The translations under genes were made by a program, and so were the position numbers. From contig OZ336877.1 of the NCBI GenBank assembly GCA_965287045.1, positions 53,816,001-53,880,000 of the forward strand: 64,000 bases of DNA. The letters run 5' to 3'. Below the pieces are notes generated by a model that saw only the letters and a list, made by a program, of their open reading frames with translations, had not been told where the DNA came from and did no database searches. Origin of the DNA: Carcharhinus amblyrhynchos. Lineage: Eukaryota. This document shows, in pieces, positions 5,546 to 62,195 of the stretch. The stretch's first letter is position 1. Every line of letters begins with the position of its first letter.

Positions 5546-6454
5546 AGTTACCAGGGAGGAGGAAAATCAAGGGCAACCACATAAAACAATCTGATATGAA
5601 TCACATGTTTGGAGGTTTCTGGTCTTTTTGCCTTTGGAAGGCATCCAGTGCAGAATGGTTTCAAGATTAAAAAGGAAAGGAGTAGCAAAGCAGAGCATGT
5701 AAAATACGTTATTAAATATCGGCATAAGTTTCAGCTTAACATAATATTCAATTGTTTTGTACAAAATTCCAGTGTTATTGCTACTTTAAAAGGAAATCTT
5801 CAGGTAGGATATATTCCAAGAAGAATTAGGAATAGTTTTCTCCAAAAGCTATATGAATATCCAATAATTTGATCATTAGGATCACTTTATATCTGTATAG
5901 AAATTTATTTGCCACATTGCAAACCTTTTAGCTGTTATCTACTTTTTCTTTCTTCCTAAGAAATGCTTTCCAAGTAGATAAAACTCTATGTGCAGAGCAT
6001 ATTTTTATAAGCGTGGACAAGTCAGGGAGGCTGGGGGTGGGGGGCAGATTGTTTGGGGATGTGAGAAGGTTTTGGGGACCTGTGAAGGACGTGACAGGGC
6101 TGTGAGGAAATCATGGGCTGTGGAGAACCTTGGGAGAGCCCACCCAGTCATGGGCAGGAGGGAGGTAGGGTCCAGTTACTGGGGAGGTTAACAAATTAAC
6201 TTGGGGTGCAGAGGGAAAGCAGGGTGCTCCTCCTGGGCCACAAGAAGTGCTGCAAAACACTAATCGTTTGCATTCAGCATCTTTCACTTTCTTTTAGCAC
6301 CAAGTTTCCTGAGGCCTGAAAAATAATAGCCAACAAGTGTTACAGCTGAAACACAGAAAAAGTCTGAGGCACGAAGCCTCATTAAAATATTTAAATTAGT
6401 GATCCACCCTGGCAATGGTTTGTTTTCCCCCCTGACTCTCACCTCTGTTAAAAC

Positions 6455-7078
6455 GCACTACTGAGTAGGGTGGTGGAGGCAGGCACGTTGGACTTGTTTA
6501 AGGTTTACTTAGATAGACACATGAGCGAAACAAGGATGGAGGGTTATAGTAGGGGGTATTAAATAGGGTCAGAGCCTCGGTAGACACCGGAAATGCAGAC
6601 TTATATGTTAACGTTTTTGTCTTTTTATTCCGCAGGTGGCGGTCCACCTTGTTGTCAAACAAGGGGCATGCACACGGTGGGTCGTGCGTGGGCTGCTCTT
6701 GGAGGTTCCGGGAGTGGCCTAGTACTTCGTGTCGGTGTGTGTGCTTGATCCTGGACCGGAAGATGGGCGCCGCAACAGCTCAGTGACTAGCACTGCTAGC
6801 TGTGCAGATACATGGATTTGGGCCTGTGTCTGTAGGAGTTTGTGCATTCTCCCTGTGGTTGCGTGGGTTTCCTCCGGGCGCTCCGGTTTCCTCCCACACC
6901 CCAAAGATGTGCTCTTAGGCTGATTGGTATATCAAATTGACACTATTCTCCCCTGAATCTGGCTAAGTTAGGGGTTCCACTCGCATACACGCAGGGCAGG
7001 GTAGGTGTAGGAGGATGCGGCAGTGTGGGCTCGTTGGGCCGAAGGGCCTGTTTCCCGTGCTGGGTTGTTCTTTGTTCT
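6455..7078 (+). mobile_element. Young 5'-truncated CR1 with an extended 3' region containing a V-SINE-like block
   Basis: TSD TTAAAAC at 6448-6454 and 7079-7085. Intact ORF2 C-terminus (N)ALLSRVVEAGTLDLFKVYLDRHMSETRMEGYSRGY* with TAA at 6560-6562. SINE-like block from 6765. CR1-type end gggccgaagggcctgtttcc followed by (TTGTTCT)n. Confidence 0.8.
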
Positions 7079-7639
7079 TTAAAACCAGAAATTTGTCGAC
7101 GATAGTTCTGCTCTGCTTTTAAATATTCACTCTCCCAGAAAACGGAAATGTGGGGGTAAAGTTGGTCCATGCCAGAAGCATGAGGCAGGTTCATTGTAAA
7201 TGGACAGCTAATAATTCATTACATCTTTCCACTGACATTCACAGAAAGATGGTTCAAACACTTTTTGGAGACTCATTTCCTTGTCTCACTGTAACTTTCA
7301 GTTAATTGTTGAATTAAACATTTTGGCAATATTTTTGAGGTCAGTGGAAAATAAAACCTGGCACAGTGTATGTCAGACTCCGAGTTTGCTGTGAACCCAT
7401 TTCACACTGCTGACATCGACTTATTTTACTAGTTTTCCTTCATATTCAAATGGATAAGGGTTGGAGAGTTCAGAAAAAAATATCTTTTGCTATAAAGCTC
7501 TTCAATATTTCAACAGTTATTTGAACTGCTGCTGCCCCTGGTGCTTGCAAGTATTCAGTGGTAGATGACTGGGTCTTATTTTATCATCAGCGTGAATGAG
7601 AGTGGCTGGTAGAGAAGCCTTCACATGAAATTCTGCAGA

Positions 7640-11423: not shown

Positions 11424-11695
11424 GTTTAACTTTACTTATTAGTGTCAGAAGTAGGCTTACATTAATACTGCAGTGAAGTTACTGTGAAAATCCCATAGTC
11501 ACTACACTGTTCTGGTACAGTGAGGGAGATTTTAGTAACCTAACCAGCACATCTTTTGAGCTATGGGAGGAAACTGGAACACCTGGAGGAAACCCATGCA
11601 GACACGGGGAGAAACTTCACACAGATAGTGACCCTGGAATTGAACCTGGGTTCCTGGTGCTGTGTGGCAGCAGTAAACACTGTAAACACTGTAAA
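11424..11695 (-). mobile_element. V-SINE-type SINE, alternative-tail subfamily
   Basis: V-domain plus a tail that reads ttcacagtaacttcactgcagtattaatgtaagcctactt...(AAACTT)n on the element strand, different from the CR1-type tail. Confidence 0.85.
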
Positions 11696-12695: not shown

Positions 12696-12982
12696 GGGGA
12701 CACACCTCCTTTCACAGCATTAGCACTCTGCCTCACAGTGCCACATTCCCAGTTTGGGTCACTGTCAGTGCGCAGTCTGCAGTTTCTCCCTGTGTCTGCA
12801 TGGGTTTCCTCTGGGTGCTCTGGTTTCCTTCCACAGTACAAAAGATGTGCTGGTTAGGTGCATTGGCCATGCTAAATTCTCCCTCCATGTACTCAAAGAG
12901 GCGCTGGAGAGTTGCAACTAGGGGATTTTCACAGGAACTTAAGTGTAAATGTAAGCCTATTTATAATAAATAAACTTATTTA
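12696..12982 (+). mobile_element. V-SINE-type SINE, alternative-tail subfamily
   Basis: V-domain at ~12775-12840. Tail ctaggggattttcacag...aatgtaagcctattt..aataaataaactt. Confidence 0.82.
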
Positions 12983-20670: not shown

Positions 20671-21599
20671 GTGGGGAAAGTGAAACTCTTTAATGGTTAA
20701 TTATTTTTTAAAAAATCTTATAGTATTTGGAACTATACATAGAATTTTCCATATTCAAATTTGTTTCCCAAGATTAATGGGGCACCAATGTATCCACATA
20801 TGAAATATTTATTGTATCAACAGGTTATGTCCAAGCATAATCACTTCTATTTGTCATTTTCCTGCTCATTTTCTTTCTCAGATCAGCTTATAAAAGGGAT
20901 TGCAAGTTTCAATAAGTTGAAGTTGAGAAATGCATTGTGAGCTAAATTAGCTCACAGTACGACTTAGTCCTATGCTTGGAAGCTGTCAGGCAATCCAATT
21001 AGTTGGAAGTTCTAGCAGTCCCAGACGAGAGCACCAAGAACTGGTGAAACCACCTCACCCAATAGCCTGCCTTACCTCAGTCTGGGATCCGTTGGGATCC
21101 CTTCTTATGACTCGTTGCAGTCCTGGCAGCACTGGGATCCCAGACTGAGGTAAGGCAAGATATTGGGAGGAGCAGGTTTGGCCAGTTTAGGGTTGTGAGG
21201 TAGAGGGGTGGATGTTGGAGAGCAGGGGGAGGGGGGCTACTATCTTGGGGGCTGTCCCCAATGCATAAAGTAGTTGCACTTCCTTCCTGTCCTTTTGAAA
21301 AACTTACTAAAAAAAATAATCTTCCCAATCCTGCTTGCCCGCACTCACCAACCATATTATGATGTGGGCAGTGTATTATCGATTCAGTTGACTTGTTAAC
21401 AAGCTCAATTGACACTCATTCAATTCATATGCTGGGCAGGCTGCCCACCTACCCTGTTTATGGGAGTGAGCTCAGGGATGGAAAGGGAGGTAGTGGGCTG
21501 GGCACCTACTCTAATTTGCATGCCCACCCCAGCTGAAACACATTCTGCAGGGGGCATGTAAGGTCCAACCCATTGTCTCATGCTGCGTGAAGTTTCATG

Positions 21600-45400: not shown

Positions 45401-46120
45401 CAGAGGGATATTAGAGGGTATGGGGTCCTTGTGCATGAGTCGCAAAAACCCAGCCTGCAGGTGCAGCAGGTGGTCAGGAAGGCTAATGGGATGCTGGCCT
45501 TCATAGCGAGGGGGATTGAATATAAAAGTAGGGAGGTCTTGCTGCGGCTGTATAGGGCATTGGTGAGGCCGCAGCTGGAGTACTGTGTGCAGTTTTGGTC
45601 GCTGTACTTACGCAAGGATATTTTGGCCTTGGAGGGAGTGCAGAGGAGGTTTTCTAGGCTGATACCGAGTTGAGGGGGTTGAGCTATGAGGAGAGGCTGA
45701 ATAAACTAGGCTTGTACTCGTTAGAGTTTAGAAGAATGAGGGGAGATCTCATTGAGACATATAAGATGATGAATGGGATGGATAGGATAGAGGTGGAGAG
45801 AAAGGACAGTAGGACTAGGGGGCACAGCCTCAAGATAAAGGGGGGGCGGTTTAGAATGGAGTTGAGGAGGAACTTTTTCACTCAAAGGGTGGTGAATCTC
45901 TGGAATTCTCTGCCCGTTGAGGTGGTGGAGGCTGCCTTGCTAAATATTTTTAAGACGCTGGTTGATGGGTTTTTGATAAGCGAGGGGATTAAGGGTTGTG
46001 GGGAGAAAGCGGGAATGTGGAACTGAGCCACGACAGGTCAGCCATGATCTTATTGAATGGCGGGGCAGGCTCTAAGGGCTAGATGGCCTACTCCTGCTCC
46101 TATTTCTTGTGTTCTTATGT
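45401..46120 (+). mobile_element. Young CR1 3' fragment, same subfamily as 59304-61153
   Basis: Highly similar to ~60424-61150, with a 1-bp frameshift near 45667, an in-frame loss of LFPLK and a (TTCTTATG)-type tail. Confidence 0.95.
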
Positions 46121-48509: not shown

Positions 48510-48654
48510 GAACATAAACATAAGAACATAAGAAATAGGAGCAGGAGTAGGCCATCCAGCCCTTCGAGCCTGCCCCGCCATTCAATAAGATCATGGCTAT
48601 ACAGCTGCAGCAAGACCTCCCTACTTTTATATTCAATCCCCTTCGCTATGAAGG
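48510..48654 (-). mobile_element. Internally deleted mini-copy of the young CR1
   Basis: The 3' UTR and tail (48510-48598) are joined directly to the ORF2 segment FIAKGIEYKSREVLLQLY (48597-48654). Confidence 0.9.
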
Positions 48655-52834: not shown

Positions 52835-53580
52835 GCCCAATCACTTCTGGCCCCAAAGACCCAACTAGCCCCTCACCTAACCAACCACTCTCTCCCCAGA
52901 CTCCCACATCCAATTACCCCCTCCTGACCCCTGACCAACTACCCCCCACGACATGACCCAGGTGCCTTCTCAATCACCTGGTCTATTCCAAGTACCTCCA
53001 TGACCGCTTCCCCTGACTTGACTCAATCCAACTAAGTCCCCAACCACCCAACTACTCCTATGTATAACCTGAGCCAACCACCTCCCCGACCACCCAACTA
53101 CTCCCCCCAATTGACCCAACTACCTCTCCCACAACCTGACTATTCCCCTAACTTGATCCAACTATCCTACCAACCACCAAATGACCCCACCAAACAACCC
53201 AACTACTCCACTCAACCTGAACCAACTAATCCCAAACATGCGGCTACCACCCAATCTGACTACCTGTCCCTCCCGACCATCCATCTACCATTTGACTATC
53301 CCCCACCCCAATCACTATCCCTCGACCAGATCAAACTGCACACCTCTCTGACAACACCGCCCCCCAACCACCCTCCCCCACCCCCCGTCCCTGTTCCCGT
53401 TCCCGTTCCCATTCCCCCCCCCCGTCCCCGTTCCCGTCCCCCCTTCCCCCCGTCCCCTCCCCTCCCCCCGTCCCCTTCCTTTCCCTCCGCCCCCGTCCCC
53501 TTCCTTTCCGTCCGCCCCCGTCCCCTCCCTCCTCCCCCACCCCCGTCCCTAATTGCCCGACTGTCCTCCCAACCTGCTTC
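52835..53580. repeat. C-rich low-complexity tract: degenerate (ACCCAACTA)-like units followed by (CCCCGT)n
   Basis: Seen directly. A similar tract in G-rich orientation lies at ~13020-13380. Confidence 0.8.
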
Positions 53581-53994
53581 AGCCAGGTTCAGAAGATACA
53601 GCTTAAAATAGGCAGTATTGTCGGGGCAGAGGGTACTTCAGAGACAGTGGCATTGCTGCTGACCAGATGTTCAGATTATATGTCATAAATGAAAAACATT
53701 GTGATGCTTTGTGTTCAGATTCCCTGCACTGGAAGAGTAAATTTCACATTCAATTTAGCTGTACCAGCATATTTGTCCTCTTACTTCTAATTCCCTAAAG
53801 TTAATGATGAATTATTTGAATTCAGACAACAAACTTTCTTGGTTAATCATTTTGTAAAAGGTAATGCTACTGCACAATGTCTGCTGAATTGTTGCATGGA
53901 ATGGTCATAATTTGAGTGCAGCATGAACAGGGTATAAAAATTGGGAATTTGGTACGTAGCCAATTTGTATGCCTTTTCCTTAGATCTAATGATA

Positions 53995-55635
53995 TCTAAT
54001 TTCCTTTGTAAACCATGGTTTGGCCACCTTTCACGTTTTACTTTTGGGGCCAGACAGGAAGAAAGAATTGTTGCAGTTTACCCATGCACTCTTTGAATGT
54101 TTGCTATTGCCCATCTACCTTTAAATAATGTTTCCAATCTATCATAGCTAACTCTCCTTGATTAAGTTTCAGAACTCTTATCTCAGAATCAACTACATCT
54201 CTCTCCATCTTGATGAAAAATTCTATCACATTATGATCGTTCATCCCAAGGGGTCTTGCACAACTGGTTTGCCAATTATTCCTTTCTCATTAGACAATAC
54301 CCAGTCTAGGATGGCCTGTCCTGTAGTTGGTTCCTAAACATATTGGTTCAGAAAACCACCCAGTATGCACTTCAGGAGTTCCTCCTCTACAATATTGTGA
54401 CTGATATAATTTGCTCAGGCTATATGAAGATTGAAGTCCCCCATAATTACAGATGTTCTTTTATCATATGTGTCTCTAATTTCCTATTTAATGCCATTCC
54501 CAATATCAAAATGACAGTTTGGGGTCTATACTACAACACCCACTAATGTTTTTTGCCCCTTAGTGTTTCTCAGCTATACCCATAGAGATTCCACAGTGTT
54601 GGAGCCAATATTCTTCTTTGGTATGGTGTTAATTTCCTCTTGAACCAGCAATGCAACTCCACCATCCTTTCCTTCTTGTCTGTCCTTCCTAAATACTGAA
54701 CACTCCTAGACGTTCATTTTCAATCCCTGGTCACCCTGCAGCTTTGGTTCCATAATCACAACTGTATCATACCCGTTTACAACTATTTACGCAATTAATT
54801 CATCTACTTTATTGTAAATGCTACTCACATTAGGGCACTAGGCCTTTAGGCTTGTCTTTTTGAGATTATTTGTCCCATTTGCACTACTTTTCACTGTGGC
54901 CCTGATTGGTTCTGGCCCTTGATTCCTTTGCCTATCAATTATCCTATTCCCCTTTCTGTATTTTTTTCTTGTCCCTGATTCCAGCTCCTCTGAATTCTTG
55001 CATCAGTTCCCATTCCCCCTGCCATTTTAGTTCAATTCCTCCCTGACCACTCTAGCAAATAATCCCCATGGGAACTAAAAGAGAAAATGTTGGAAAATCT
55101 CAGCAGAGCTGGCAGCATCTATAAGGAGAGAAAAGAGCTGACATTTCGAGTCCAAATGTCCCTTAGTCAGAGCTCAACTTGAAACATCAGCTCTTTTTCC
55201 TCCTTATAGATGCTGCCAGACCTGCTGAGATCTTTCAGCATTTTCTCTTTTGGTTTCAGACTCTAGCATCCACAGTAACTTTTTTTTGCTTTTAATCCCA
55301 CTAGAACATCCATCCCAGTCATGCCAATGTGTAATCCATCCAGTTTACACTGGTCCTGCCTCCCCCAGAACAAATCTCGATGTCCTAGAAATCTGGAACC
55401 CTCCCTCTCACACCATCTCTTCAGCCATGTAATCATCCGATATATCTTGTTATTTCTACTCTGACTAGCATGTGGCAATGGTAGCATTTCAGAGATCACT
55501 ACGTTTGAGGTTCTACTTTTCAACTAACTTCCTAACTCCCTATATTCTGCTTTTAGGGCCTCATCCTTTTTTTTAATCCTGCGCTGATTGTACCAATGTG
55601 TACCACACCACTGGTTGTTCACCCTCCCCCTCCAG
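53995..55635 (-). mobile_element. Decayed CR1 5' half (ORF1 esterase and ORF2 endonuclease)
   Basis: KSRTSNVVISEMLPLPHASQSRNNKI..MITWLKRWCEREGSRFLGH...LDGLH is an SGNH esterase-like motif typical of CR1 ORF1. Endonuclease remnants follow (YDTVVIMEP, VVV..P, IMGDFNLH). Confidence 0.85.
55073..55292. mobile_element. Inverted pair of Penelope-like terminal repeats nested in the CR1
   Basis: The ~79-bp arm at 55073-55151 is the imperfect reverse complement of 55177-55255. Confidence 0.75.
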
Positions 55636-56760: not shown

Positions 56761-58000
56761 AGACGATCCCATTGACTGGACCCCATTCTTCTGAAGCCGT
56801 TGTAAACCTTGGTGACATGGTGTCACGTTGGTGTGGTATGAATATTTAGTAAGGGGGAATTATGTGGTGGGGAGGCTCATTAATAGTAGTCAATCTTATT
56901 AAAATCCATTTGTTACGTCACTGGTGAGGCGATGGAGAAAATCGGAAAAGAAATCTCACTTGCAGTGAACACAGGAGCAAAATTGTCCCTAATGTTTATA
57001 TAATTTTCAATGCATTAAAAAAACTATGTTTTGGCCAATCATGTAGAAATGATACAGTATTGAACATAAAGTATGTCACAGGTGACATGCCCTTGTTCTA
57101 TTCAAGTTGCCTTAAAATTACATTTGCATACTGCGTCTTGGTGCCCCCACCCCACTCAAATGGGCTGCACCTAGGAGGATGCATCCAGCGCTGTGGGTGG
57201 GCATTCCTCTGACATCTTGACATTCACCAGAAGAGGCACCCAGGCACTGGTGTTCTGATCTTGAGCCTCCCTGAAAGGAGCCCACAGAGATGACAGGCAG
57301 CTTGCCCTCCAGAATGAGATGTGTTTGGACCTCTTTGATCACCATTGATGGACAAACAACTAGCTGAGAGACCAAATGCCTCATCCATCTCTCACACTGG
57401 CAGTGACCTCCTGAGTTCCGTGACAGTGTAGGGTTACAGGTCCAATCACAACCCCAGGAACTCCAAACTGTTCCTGGAACTGCCTCGCCATGAGTTACAA
57501 CTCTCTCCACGAAGGAGGCTATGTGCTTGGTCCTGCATGTCAGCGCAGTGCTCATACTTGGCATGGACTCCTCCATGACAGAGACCGTGTCACGTCAGGT
57601 TCTCTGACAAATCTCCCCATACACTCTGCTGGACGTCCAGCATCTTCTTCCTGATGGAGGACTCCAGAGGCTTGTCACCTGCCTTGGACTCAAGTCTCCA
57701 GTTGTCCTTCGACTTATGGTGCCCTGGGCTTCTCTTCTGCCTCTGCAAGCTCCTTATGCGGGTGTGATATGCCCTCACCACTGTGCAATACCTACAGAGC
57801 CAATGACTTAATGCCCACCAATGTATCAGTACCTGTGCTGGAGCTTGCTTCAGGGGGTGTGACATTGGTGCAAGTGTCAGTGTCTCATCATCAAAGGTTA
57901 AGGAGTGGGCTTTAAGATCACCAGACATTCTGCACCTGTGGGAAGAAAACAACATGTCAATACATTCAATCATCACATTGTCAATGTGTAAGCTAGGCGG

Positions 58001-58446
58001 GCTGATAAACTAGGCTTGTACTCGTTAGAGTTTAGAAGAATGAGGGGAGATCTCATTGAGACGTATAAGATGATGAATGGGATGGATAGGATAGAGGTGG
58101 AGAGACTCTTCCCGCTCAAAAAAGACAGTAGGACTAGGGGGCACAGCCTCAAGATAAAGGGGAGGCGGTTTAGAACGGAGTTGAGGAGGAACTTCTTCAC
58201 TCAAAGGGTGGTGAATCTCTGGAATTCTCTGCCCGTTGAAGTGGTGGAGGCTGCCTCGCTAAATATTTTTAAGAAGCGGGTTGATGGGTTCTTGATAAGA
58301 GAGGGGATTAAGGGTTATGGGGAGAGGGCGGGAAAGTGGAACTGAGCCACGACAGATCAGCCATGATCTTATTGAATGGCGGGGCAGGCTCAAAGGGCTA
58401 GATGGCCTACTCCTGCTCCTATTTCTTATGTTCTTATGTTCTTATG
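58001..58446 (+). mobile_element. Young CR1 3' fragment
   Basis: Almost identical to ~60711-61151 (I find about 3 differences) with a (TTCTTATG)3 tail. Confidence 0.96.
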
Positions 58447-59303
58447 AATTACAGCATGGTCTCATCTGGATTGGAGCTTCAGTGGGCATTTTGCTGGGAC
58501 ATTTCCATTTCAGATCAGAGGACCCCACAATGTTTGCACTCCCCACTGCACTCACAGCTGTTCACTGCACCCTTACCTTCATCCGAGATCCTTGCCTCAC
58601 CACAACCAGAGGATCGAGCTCTGTGGTGGCAATTCATCCCAAATCCATCTATCCTGTAGCAGGTCAGGAGATGCAGATGGGGAATCCCATTGACCATTCT
58701 GCTGTCCCACTGCCCGTTCCTCTGTCCTCTGCTGCATTATGGCTTCTGTTCTGAAAGGGAAGAATAGAATGCATCATTAGTGCTCCCTCTCCCTGAAGCA
58801 CCGTTCTAGTTTATTCACGTCCCCTTCCCCATCCAAGTGCCAGGTTGCAGGGTGCACCTCACTCTCCAGTGCACTCAAGCAAAGCATGCAGACCCAGCCT
58901 TGCAGACACAGGCTTCAGTGCCAGTTAGCACGCACACTCTTGCACTCCTGAGCATCTCAAGGAATGTCCACCTGATTACACATCTCTCTGCACAGTTCCA
59001 TGCCACCATCTGTACTCACCTTTGCAGAAGTTTGTTGAACTTTTGTGGCTCTGAATCCACATTTGTCACACCACACTGTGCCCAGGCTTTCTTGGTGACA
59101 TGTGGCAACTTCCTCTTTCTTTCTCTGGAAATCAAAATGTCCCATCTGGCACTGACCTCCTCCACCATAATTCCAAGGTATTCACTGAGGAAGGTTGAGT
59201 GCTGATTGGAATTGTTCTCCAACCTTCTGTGCCCACTAAGTGCTACGACCATTATTACTTCCTTACTGCATTGCAGAAAATCCACTCTACCTCACCTACA
59301 ACA

Positions 59304-61153
59304 GAGTTTTTATAAATATATAAAAAGGAAGAGGCTGGCTAGGGTGAACGTTGGTCCTTTAGAGGATGAGAAAGGGGAGCTAGTGGTAGGGGATGGGGAT
59401 ATGGCTAAGGTCTTGAATAACTTTTTTGTTTCTGTCTTCACGGAGGAGGACGTGAATAATTTGCCGGGTGTTAGCGATGGAAAGGTGGTAGGAATGGAGG
59501 GTCTTAATGACATTACTGTTACTAGAGAGGTGGTGCTCGACAGACTGGAGGGGCTGATTGTGGACAAGTCCCCAGGACCGGATGGAATGCATCCGAGGGT
59601 TCTGAAAGAAATGGCGGAGGTGATAGTGGATGCCTTGGTGGTTATTTTCCAGACGTCGCTGGATTCCGGGGAAGTGCCGGAAGATTGGAAAACGGCTAAT
59701 GTTACGCCGTTGTTTAAGAAGGGTGCCAGGCAAAAGGCGGGGAATTATAGGCCGGTTAGTTTAACGTCTGTGGTAGGTAAAATGTTAGAATCCGTCATTA
59801 AGCAGGAAATTGCGAGGCATCTTGAAGGGAATTGCTTGATAGGGCGGACGCAACACGGTTTCATTAAAGGGAAGTCGTGTCTGACAAATTTACTGGAGTT
59901 CTATGAGGATGTGTCTAGGGCAGTGGATAGAGGAGAGCCGGTGGATGTGGTCTTTCTGGATTTTCAGAAGGCGTTTGACAAGGTACCTCACAAGAGGTTA
60001 TTGCAGAAGGTCAGGGGACAGGGAGTTGGGGGTAGGGTGTTAGCGTGGATAGAGGATTGGTTGTCAAATAGGAGGCAGAGAGTGGGGGTCAATGGGTGCT
60101 ATTCGGATTGGCGGTTGGTGACTAGTGGGGTGCCCCAGGGGTCGGTGCTGGGGCCTCAGCTATTTACCATTTATATAGATGATCTGGAGGAGGGAACCGA
60201 GTGCAGGGTGTCGAAATTTGCTGATGACACCAAGATTGGGGGAAAGGCAAATTGTGCGGAGGGTGTGGAGAGTCTGCAGAAGGATCTAGATAGGCTGGGC
60301 GAATGGGCCAGGAAATGGCAAATGGAATTTAATGTTGGCAAGTGTGAGGTGGTCCACTTTGGTAGGAAGAATGGTAGGAAGGACTATTACTTACGTGGAG
60401 AAAAACTGCAGCAGGCGACGGTGCAGAGGGACCTCGGGGTCCTTGTGCATGAGTCGCAAAAACCCAGCTTGCAGGTGCAGCAGGTGGTCAGGAAGGCAAA
60501 TGGGATGCTGGCCTTCATAGCGAGGGGGATTGAATATAAAAGTAGGGAGGTCTTGCTGCAGCTGTATAGGGCATTGGTGAGGCCGCAGCTGGAGTACTGT
60601 GTGCAGTTTTGGGCGCCGCACCTGCGCAAGGATATTTTGGCCCTGGAGGGAGTGCAGAGGAGGTTTACTAGGCTGATACCGGAGTTGAGGGGATTGAGCT
60701 ATGAGGAGAGGCTGAATAAACTAGGCTTGTACTCGTTAGAGTTTAGAAGAATGAGGGGAGATCTCATTGAGACGTATAAGATGATGAATGGGATGGATAG
60801 GATAGAGGTGGAGAGACTCTTCCCGCTCAAAAAAGACAGTAGGACTAGGGGGCACAGCCTCAAGATAAAGGGGAGGCGGTTTAGAACGGAGTTGAGGAGG
60901 AACTTCTTCACTCAAAGGGTGGTGAATCTCTGGAATTCTCTGCCCGTTGAAGTGGTGGAGGCTGCCTCGCTAAATATTTTTAAGAAGCGGGTTGATGGGT
61001 TCTTGATAAGAGAGGGGATTAAGGGTTATGGGGAGAGGGCGGGAAAGTGGAACTGAGCCACAACAGATCAGCCATGATCTTATTGAATGGCGGGGCAGGC
61101 TCGAAGGGCTAGATGGCCTACTCCTGCTCCTATTTCTTATGTTCTTATGTTCT
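59304..61153 (+). mobile_element. Young 5'-truncated CR1 LINE (HER1-like)
   Basis: TSD TACAACA at 59297-59303 and 61154-61160, uninterrupted ORF2 portion, 3' stem-loop, (TTCTTATG)n tail and retained CpGs. Confidence 0.97.
59305..61056 (+). CDS. CR1 ORF2 reverse transcriptase, N-terminally truncated (583 aa, no endonuclease domain)
   Basis: Motifs KSPGPDG, NYRPVSLTS, QHGF, DFQKAFD, GVPQGSVLGP, FADD and RPQLEYC. The first 33 codons of the track ORF (TTG start) are flanking host sequence. Confidence 0.9.
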   Translation, partial: SFYKYIKRKRLARVNVGPLEDEKGELVVGDGDMAKVLNNFFVSVFTEEDVNNLPGVSDGKVVGMEGLNDITVTREVVLDRLEGLIVDKSPGPDGMHPRVLKEMAEVIVDALVVIFQTSLDSGEVPEDWKTANVTPLFKKGARQKAGNYRPVSLTSVVGKMLESVIKQEIARHLEGNCLIGRTQHGFIKGKSCLTNLLEFYEDVSRAVDRGEPVDVVFLDFQKAFDKVPHKRLLQKVRGQGVGGRVLAWIEDWLSNRRQRVGVNGCYSDWRLVTSGVPQGSVLGPQLFTIYIDDLEEGTECRVSKFADDTKIGGKANCAEGVESLQKDLDRLGEWARKWQMEFNVGKCEVVHFGRKNGRKDYYLRGEKLQQATVQRDLGVLVHESQKPSLQVQQVVRKANGMLAFIARGIEYKSREVLLQLYRALVRPQLEYCVQFWAPHLRKDILALEGVQRRFTRLIPELRGLSYEERLNKLGLYSLEFRRMRGDLIETYKMMNGMDRIEVERLFPLKKDSRTRGHSLKIKGRRFRTELRRNFFTQRVVNLWNSLPVEVVEAASLNIFKKRVDGFLIREGIKGYGERAGKWN

Positions 61154-61789
61154 TACAACATCCAGTAGGCCTCAGGGTGCTGTCTGCAGAGTCTTTTAAC
61201 TGCTTGCTGGATCCCCATTGGACCTGGCACCCAACTAGTTCCCACCCAGCCTGCACTGTCAGGCTAACTGGAAAATGCATTTCACGCTTGGCATACTTTA
61301 ATTGGTCACCCAGCGTGAAATTGTGTTGATGATGCGATCTCACCCAGAGGCAGATTCTGCATCCGCTTCTGGGCCTGCTGACTTTGAATCCACGCCAGGC
61401 ATGAAATTCAAGCCTAAAAGGTTAACGTTCAATATTTTGAAGAGGCTAACCTTCTCAAGGGCAGCTAAGGATGGACAGTAAAATTAAATGGTGAAAATAC
61501 ACAGCAGAACTATCAACATGAGAAGAAGAAGCAAACCATTGGACATTTCAGATAGAAAACATTGCTCGCAGTGATCATATCACAAGAGTGAATGTAAAAT
61601 GCCAAAAAAATCCAGCTGGAGTCATTGAATGATGATTAGAATTGAAAACTGTGGCTAATTGTTTTCCTTTCCCTAGCTTGCAATGCTGAGGCCCATTGTA
61701 ATAGAACTTCTACTCTGGCTGAGATCAGCTAACTGTTACGAAGTTAGTATATTTGTACTGTGGACTTTTTCCTGCTGATCTCCCTGCTC

Positions 61790-62195
61790 CACGTCCTCCC
61801 TTTGTTTTGGTTAGCTTTATAAAGGGGTTCTTCTGTCGGCAGTCAATCAGATCTGACAAAAAGCTTTCTGCCTGAAATGTCCAACGGCCTTTTCTCTTTC
61901 AAATGTTGACAGACCTGCTGTGTATTTTCAGTATTATTTATTTATATTTGGATAAAGGTACTATTAGACAAGGGTGTTACTATAATTAAAGGACTTTAGA
62001 TTTGTTTTTGTAGACTTGGATGAATGTATCTTTGTAAAATAAAATCTTGTTTGGATCACACACACAAACCCTTGCTTTGCAGTCAGACTATTAATTAGAA
62101 ATAAAAACAGAAAATGTTGCATAAACTCAGCAGATCTGGCAGCATCTGTGGAGAGAGAAACAGAGTTAAAATCTCGTGTCCATTGACGCTTTTGT
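61790..62195. mobile_element. Two Penelope-like terminal repeat fragments in opposite orientation
   Basis: The + copy at ~61790-61945 has ctgacaaaaag..cctgaaatgtc..cagacctgctg. The - copy at ~62098-62195 has aaaacagaaaatgttgc..ctcagcagatctggcagcatctgtggag. Confidence 0.65.

Follow-up and report, generated by a model that had tools for sequence, protein, structure and literature searches.

Sequence usually flows from LINEs to SINEs, with SINEs borrowing the tails of LINEs, and BovB lineages with added SINE or CR1 fragments reportedly exist as well. One of the closest described systems is HE1, a V-SINE of sharks and rays whose partner LINE is HER1 (parts of PMC3747384 and PMC4824008). The locus described here lies at 6448-7085 of the window, by which we mean the whole 64,000-nt stretch of Carcharhinus amblyrhynchos DNA that was analysed. 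It resembles HE1 in having the remnant of a tRNA-derived head, a central V core, and a tail made of a CR1-type hairpin and a repeat. In contrast to HE1, it has no B box and no target-site duplication (TSD) around the SINE block, and the block lies where a CR1 ORF2 has its 3′ UTR, set off from the coding end by 200 nt of unrelated sequence. We take the SINEs elsewhere in the window to be HE1, having set them beside HE1 and HER1 by description rather than by consensus sequence. The locus also differs from these local SINEs, to which its head and post-core are only 49-59 per cent identical.

The other point of reference is the canonical chondrichthyan CR1, described in a 2026 survey of the group (PMC13343379) and represented in the window at 45.4, 58.0, and 59.2 kb. 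The locus shares with these elements a homologous ORF2 C-terminus, 5′ truncation, and a tail hairpin followed by a microsatellite. It differs in that its ORF2 ends four residues earlier, the distance from stop to hairpin is 473 nt instead of 51 nt, and the UTR contains a predicted folded element and a SINE fossil. The text portions of the survey mention no SINE in a CR1 UTR.

LINE consensus sequences with a SINE-like segment are also on record. For Ingi-3_AC and R4-1_ADi, the available part of PMC5786205 has the author suggesting possible LINE–SINE recombination; the segments there are short RTE- or Ceph-like pieces, located in 5′ UTRs and in other clades, whereas here a whole head-core-tail SINE stands at a CR1 3′ end. 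The same source states that nothing similar to conserved SINE bodies had been found. The chimeric L1-BovB of cattle likewise fuses different kinds of retroelement in one unit, but it is described in the excerpt of PMC6036668 as a nested LINE-in-LINE with little evidence of transcription, while the present locus has a SINE fused at the priming end. Going by these partly available sources (PMC5786205, PMC6036668, PMC5729268), LINE–SINE mixing has precedents and the locus is not a new kind of system. We found no report in the literature of a V-SINE in a CR1 3′ UTR, and the family may already be catalogued in repeat consensus sets.

Layout and boundaries of the composite element

The window is repeat-rich and of vertebrate type; it contains several pieces of CR1-like LINEs, and one SINE with a tRNA head is present in seven copies. 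Within it, the composite element is made up as follows.

6448-6454, + strand: 5′ copy of the TSD, 7 bp, last 3 nt shared with the first ORF2 codon
6452-6562, + strand: end of a CR1 ORF2, last 36 codons and stop, of a clade ending 4 residues before the commonest CR1 ORF2 end found here
6563-6635, + strand: start of the 3′ UTR, with no remnant CR1 tail; U-rich tract and acceptor-like AG at 6634-6635
6640-6758, + strand (sense): predicted structured RNA with a closing helix and hairpins at 6647-6664 and 6665-6745
6764-6834, + strand: eroded SINE head of tRNA origin, with an A box at 6776-6786 (2 mismatches) and no B box
6835-6927, + strand: V-domain core, 86 per cent identical to the local V-SINE consensus, 4 of 5 CpG sites kept
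6928-7020, + strand: post-core segment, length as in the local SINEs, about 49 per cent identity
7021-7078, + strand: CR1-type tail, hairpin at 7035-7050 with a 4-nt loop and two 7-nt terminal repeat units at 7065-7078
7079-7085, + strand: 3′ copy of the TSD, 7 bp, first 2 nt carrying on the tail repeat

The repeat TTAAAAC at 6448-6454 and 7079-7085 is a 7-bp TSD that overlaps both ends of the element. In the 624 bp between its copies, 36 open CR1 ORF2 codons come first, then about 200 bp unique within the window, the body of a V-SINE, and a single tail of CR1 type. A bare 7-mer repeat is weak evidence, with five two-copy 7-mer families present in the 731 bp from 6400 to 7130. This one, however, sits on both element boundaries: a match within ±5 nt of two set points occurred in 0.9 per cent of 100,000 random draws, and one within ±10 nt in 3.4 per cent. 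The last 3 nt of the 5′ copy double as the first ORF2 codon (microhomology at the truncation point), and the first 2 nt of the 3′ copy extend the tail repeat (microhomology at the 3′ end). Microhomology at both ends is what is expected of a single target-primed insertion.

A sequence-only reading of this DNA had proposed that one 7-bp TSD surrounds an ORF2 end, a CpG-rich middle, a V-SINE block, and a CR1 tail, all mobilised as one unit. This layout is confirmed at 6448-7085: a single TSD and a single tail are present, the SINE is not framed by a TSD, and no vestige of a CR1 tail follows the stop. The same reading had named a TSD belonging to the SINE block as the sign of an independent nested insertion; no repeat longer than 5 nt links 6730-6790 with 6940-7100, a weak test given that the five local SINEs checked also lack a clear TSD. 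There is likewise no second tail inside the composite element. The locus is a single insertion. Tested as a CR1, it shows 5′ truncation and a TSD. The short 3′ UTRs previously noted for the other young CR1s were also found, the hairpin lying 51 nt past the stop in all three young window CR1s checked, as against 473 nt in the composite element.

The CR1s available for comparison in the window include a very young copy at 59206-61156 (+) with 616 open codons and an RVT_1 domain. A 446-bp 3′ copy lies 1 kb upstream (57998-58444, +) and is 99.3 per cent identical, and a third copy at 45422-46120 is 94 per cent identical. We take the RVT_1-bearing ORF2 to be CR1.

The ORF2 end and the folded middle segment

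The coding part of the element consists of 36 open codons (6452-6559) and a stop at 6560-6562; 36 codons stay open in 6.8 per cent of shuffles. It matches the window's young intact CR1 weakly (36 per cent identity, E 0.2). A search of 1.84 billion representative proteins gave five matches, of which P0001 is real (83 per cent identity across all 36 residues, E 4e-10) and the other four, unrelated repetitive proteins, were dropped. The sequence-only reading had called this C-terminus intact, and the 36 open codons, the family stop, and the 83 per cent identity to P0001 bear it out. Follow-up searches brought in three longer relatives and twenty-three shorter ones (P0001 among them).

We built a tree from twenty of these twenty-six distinct proteins together with the ORF2 end and the window's intact ORF2, leaving out P0023 and P0026-P0030 as short or partial; the alignment has only 62 columns. 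The ORF2 end groups with P0001, P0006, P0007, P0009, and P0010 (support 98/96), on a stem of 0.49 and with an end branch of 0.044 of its own. P0006 is an open 194-aa piece of ORF2; it shares 62 per cent identity with the C-terminal portion of the ORF2 in the window that bears RVT_1, and 81 per cent with the ORF2 end over 36 aa.

In this clade, five of the six rows terminate 29 residues past a VEA motif and the sixth, P0009, is cut short. Among the other rows, eight proteins share the most frequent complete end, which comes 33 residues past the motif and has a tryptophan close to the terminus. Because five of the six clade rows end at the same residue, the stop at 6560-6562 is the clade's own, and the junction with the middle segment therefore sits exactly where the clade's 3′ UTR begins; the relatives in the clade are protein sequences, which carry no DNA context. 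The short ORF2 end is not confined to the clade: P0011 has it yet falls outside, and 0 per cent of bootstrap trees unite the six short-ended rows. Among shark CR1 families, one whose ORF2 ends like that of P0011 carries a short UTR.

A codon-position test against the window's CR1s was uninformative, these being too distant (18, 10, and 17 differences). An antisense frame of 93 codons that crosses the junction (6501-6779) had no match in the protein collection among two candidates. ORF2 patterns gave forty-four pattern matches in GTDB, none of them confirmed, and no match was found in phages and plasmids; all of these collections, that of the proteins included, hold little shark sequence, and the negatives are weak.

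Downstream of the stop, the segment 6563-6763 is unique in the window, with blastn, nhmmer, and a one-sequence covariance model (filters off) finding only the segment itself. Its CpG observed/expected ratio is 0.87 against 0.23 for the window, in keeping with its earlier description as about 200 bp of CpG-rich sequence unrelated to CR1. The next covariance-model scores fall on 55096-55232 and 21054-21172, which are DNA palindromes that score on both strands and have no sequence likeness to the segment. The former is a near-perfect 137-bp, MITE-like palindrome with a related sequence at 62098-62182, and the latter is a long inverted repeat.

Of 200 shuffles, none folds as well as the segment 6563-6763 (z -3.3), a feature that the sequence-only reading had not noted. 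The signal centres on about 6640-6758 in the sense direction, where the predicted energy is -66.8 kcal/mol (z -6.8) against -35.0 kcal/mol (z -2.0) antisense; this interval was picked as the best from a scan in 20-nt steps. The predicted fold has a closing helix, a short hairpin (6647-6664), and an 81-nt hairpin (6665-6745) whose arms are far apart in sequence. Of its forty-eight pairs, forty have a probability above 0.9. Eleven are G-U, three tandem UG/UG motifs among them, and the stem contains no A-C apposition. As a decaying DNA palindrome should give G-T and A-C equally, the presence of G-U without A-C suggests that selection on an RNA, if it folds as modelled, lies behind the bias. The stem is A-poor (7 of 81 nt), a composition that favours G-U. 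Among the regions compared, this predicted fold is the strongest, and in a coarse control scan none of 534 windows went beyond z -4.9. Among the eight best controls after refinement, 61221 (-) reaches z -6.0, and 8641 (+) has eleven G-U pairs at z -4.0. The former belongs to a second strongly folded, strand-biased segment at 61221-61340 (-), just 3′ of the young CR1 (z -6.0 against -2.5).

Rfam 15 gave no match in the window at the gathering score, and only chance-level matches (E 1-9) for 6440-7100 and 6600-6800, so a known ncRNA or ribozyme in the middle segment finds no support there. ARAGORN found no tRNA gene. If it folds as modelled, the middle segment would most likely serve the retroelement RNA in cis, in stability or RNP packaging.

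Two further features of this segment were followed up. A U-rich, pyrimidine tract before the AG at 6634-6635 makes it a strong predicted 3′ splice acceptor, at a level reached by 15 of 8514 AG sites. A crude acceptor–donor scan for host exons listed ninety-six candidates, none of them recognisable by eye as a gene. The motif ACCGGAA, which we take to resemble ETS sites, flanks the folded unit at 6586 and 6755, these being two of the three such sites in the window. As an inner TSD the pair is indistinguishable from chance, given five two-copy 7-mer families in the 731 bp.

The SINE-derived 3′ end

The V-SINE block starts at about 6764, and from head to tail it is colinear in length with the local SINEs (about 315 nt). 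Its core matches six other SINE copies in the window (E 1e-22 to 1e-11); the match to a seventh is split into two short stretches. Against a consensus of five local SINEs, the core at 6835-6927 is 86 per cent identical (those copies, 82-90 per cent), whereas the head reaches 59 per cent (local copies 76-84 per cent), the post-core 49 per cent (72-83 per cent), and the tail 58 per cent (77-85 per cent). The value for the head depends on gap placement, and the other register gives the same message.

The head is about 19 nt shorter than those of the local SINEs. It retains an A box with two mismatches (6776-6786), and its alignment stands above shuffles for three of the five local heads, where 2, 6, and 10 of 500 shuffles score as high, and not for the other two. 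We also scored the heads against the B-box consensus motif. Nothing better than three mismatches was found in this head, while four of the five local heads have an exact B box and the fifth has one with two mismatches. The sequence-only reading had placed a V-SINE-like block with a degenerate B box from 6765. The block stands, from about 6764, and the B box is absent rather than merely degenerate, which leaves the Pol III promoter dead. Lacking this box, the block does not qualify as a Pol III SINE of the ordinary sort, and the loss speaks against a SINE that carried along a 5′ transduction.

Two unrelated SINEs with intact tRNA heads, on the GTDB contigs L001 and L002, share 36-37 bp of the core at 92-95 per cent identity. 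They are the only two loci that the V-core pattern retrieved from GTDB, and both are free-standing SINEs with no ORF2 nearby. These animal-type, tRNA-headed V-core SINEs (L001:1230-1730, -; L002:1300-1800, +) sit in contigs of two Sedimenticola MAGs and are probably host DNA contaminating the bins. The V domain is widely conserved among SINEs, according to the available part of PMC4824008. Within the window, V-core SINEs at 11449-11683 (-) and 12745-12962 (+) have in common a post-core and tail unlike those of the other five copies, and so form a second SINE subfamily.

The tail of the element aligns best with local SINE tails, at scores of 44 and 36 that none of 500 shuffles equalled, and next with CR1 tails, at a score of 29 that 1-2 of 500 shuffles equalled. 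Seven to eight codons across its hairpin translate identically to the read-through CR1 proteins P0008 and P0017. The hairpin and the two 7-nt units match the CR1 3′ end as characterised in the portion of PMC5729268 at hand, namely a hairpin followed by a short tandem repeat with no poly(A). This hairpin is common to SINEs and CR1s and fits either a SINE or a LINE origin of the tail. None of eleven tails matches 6560-6660 above shuffles (58 of 500 shuffles equal the best of them), and no trace of a CR1 tail was thus found after the stop. A 3′ transduction, in which the element's own 3′ end comes before the flank, is not what this arrangement displays.

The composite element is one that works like a CR1, having every CR1 feature that could be tested; its 3′ part is derived from a V-SINE and falls outside the V-SINEs on the B box.

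Origin and age of the element

The CpG content speaks to the age of the insertion. Its observed/expected ratio is 0.62 in the composite element, 0.61 in the intact CR1 at 59.4-61.1 kb, and 0.18-0.26 in old CR1s, and it ranges from 0.44 to 0.86 across all four segments against 0.23 for the window. The V core keeps four of five scorable CpG sites, against zero to three in the seven local SINE copies, and is 15 per cent divergent at non-CpG sites. These values describe what appears to be a young copy of an already divergent template, and an unmethylated source locus would look similar. The earlier view that retained CpGs mark a recent event thus holds for the insertion (0.62 against 0.61) and does not extend to the capture of the SINE, which the CpGs do not date. 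The capture looks old, because the head and post-core have drifted to 49-59 per cent identity and the two arms of the long hairpin are distant in sequence.

We consider it probable that the locus, as far as the one copy examined can tell, is a 5′-truncated copy of a CR1 lineage whose 3′ UTR of about 515 nt absorbed a V-SINE. The sequence-only reading had left this standing next to a SINE with a 5′ transduction. The LINE lineage is favoured, because the SINE lacks a B box and the ORF2 end comes from a clade of its own with a shared stop.

Under this explanation, a V-SINE would long ago have become the 3′ end of a CR1 master, either through a reverse transcriptase jump from SINE RNA to CR1 mRNA or through read-through into a downstream SINE. 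The fusion would have been viable because CR1 ORF2p recognises a hairpin and microsatellite tail, which such SINEs already share. Stringent LINEs need their cognate tail hairpin, as shown for zebrafish L2s (PMC4176376, in part), and HE1-type SINEs have their tail in common with their CR1 partner HER1 (PMC3747384, in part); a SINE–CR1 fusion would therefore stay mobile. The unit would now be transcribed by Pol II from the LINE promoter, which would let the SINE B box and head decay while the V core and tail hairpin stay recognisable. For the present copy, ORF2p would have made a nick in the target and used 2 nt of homology to prime on the tail repeat; it would then have copied 624 nt and completed the insertion with 3 nt of homology inside ORF2.

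Against a lineage, a single copy was seen, no DNA ties the ORF2 of any relative to this UTR, and this genome holds another joined CR1 product, a one-off, at 48512-48654 (-). V-SINE families differ outside the core by definition, and the donor could be a SINE family absent from the window. In a bolder version, an autonomous and long-lived shark CR1 clade domesticated its own parasite, with a promoter-dead V-SINE as its 3′ end and with the V domain and a previously undescribed 120-nt three-helix RNA element under selection within a Pol II LINE mRNA. We put this forward tentatively and regard it as possible, with the balance tilting against it.

Three other explanations were weighed against the CR1 lineage. 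The locus might be a one-off or low-copy chimera, with no lineage carrying this UTR. It could have arisen by CR1 read-through into a CpG-island flank and an old same-strand SINE, with priming on the SINE tail, or by one template switch at this insertion. The middle segment is single-copy in the 64 kb, as such a chimera would have it, and the joined product at 48512-48654 is a local example; an unmethylated source locus would also retain CpGs, and template switching by the CR1 reverse transcriptase has been proposed for bird SINEs (PMC5729268, in part). A transduction, however, should keep the CR1's own tail after the stop, where none of the eleven tails matches 6560-6660 above shuffles, and a random switch would have to fall within a few dozen nt past the stop. 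An old genomic SINE would also decay evenly, as the five local copies have, rather than keep a core at 86 per cent against 49-59 per cent elsewhere. Finally, a random flank is not expected to fold on one strand at z -6.8, although one of the eight refined controls reached -6.0 (0 of 534 beyond -4.9 in the coarse scan). We judge a chimera unlikely.

We think it less likely still, and rather improbable, that 6563-7078 or 6636-7078, the middle segment together with the V body and tail, belongs to a separate family of non-autonomous retroposons, one copy of which became joined here to a CR1 end on its 5′ side. In that family the dead tRNA promoter would have given way to a new head, structured and GC-rich, or to a Pol II promoter. 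The folded unit is sharp-ended and adjoins the SINE head, and the ACCGGAA sites at 6586 and 6755 that flank it are ETS-like. This pair may be chance, however, with five two-copy 7-mer families in 731 bp. SINEs with GC-rich heads of unknown origin do exist (PMC5786205, in part), but here the CR1 part is also inside the TSD, and the middle contains no spaced pair of A and B boxes, its best B-like matches having two to three mismatches. The remaining explanation is that an old CR1 end, unique DNA, and a SINE were inserted independently, nested or side by side, within a chance 7-mer repeat. Such repeats are common, and inside the window the ORF2 end finds a poor CR1 match (E 0.2). The repeat nevertheless coincides with both boundaries, which happens by chance in about 1 per cent of cases; there is no SINE TSD, no second tail, and no CR1 tail past the stop; and CpG retention is raised in all four segments against the window's 0.23. 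Independent insertions are highly improbable on these grounds.

If the preferred explanation is true, a LINE lineage with a whole SINE as its 3′ end would reverse the usual flow from LINE to SINE. What conserved SINE bodies do and where they come from is treated as an open question in the available parts of PMC4824008 and PMC5786205 (section 24). Should the V core be retained at 86 per cent in a LINE UTR despite loss of the Pol III promoter, its role would be post-transcriptional; and if the domestication is true, V-domain function would be independent of Pol III and could be assayed inside a self-mobilising element. Repeat annotation would split such a family into CR1, unique DNA, and SINE, and counts of shark SINEs would be inflated. 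If the locus is a one-off chimera, it is a minor curiosity.

Two other loci in the window can be described briefly. The joined product at 48512-48654 (-) is a young bipartite CR1, in which 58 nt of ORF2 (matching 60512-60569 at 98 per cent) and the last 82 nt of the 3′ UTR (99 per cent) meet over a 2-nt overlap, the outcome of an internal deletion or a template jump. A CpG-rich, low-complexity, C-rich stretch at 53001-53700 has an observed/expected ratio of 0.84 in 53001-53500 and contains proline-rich frames, and may be a promoter island or a repeat.
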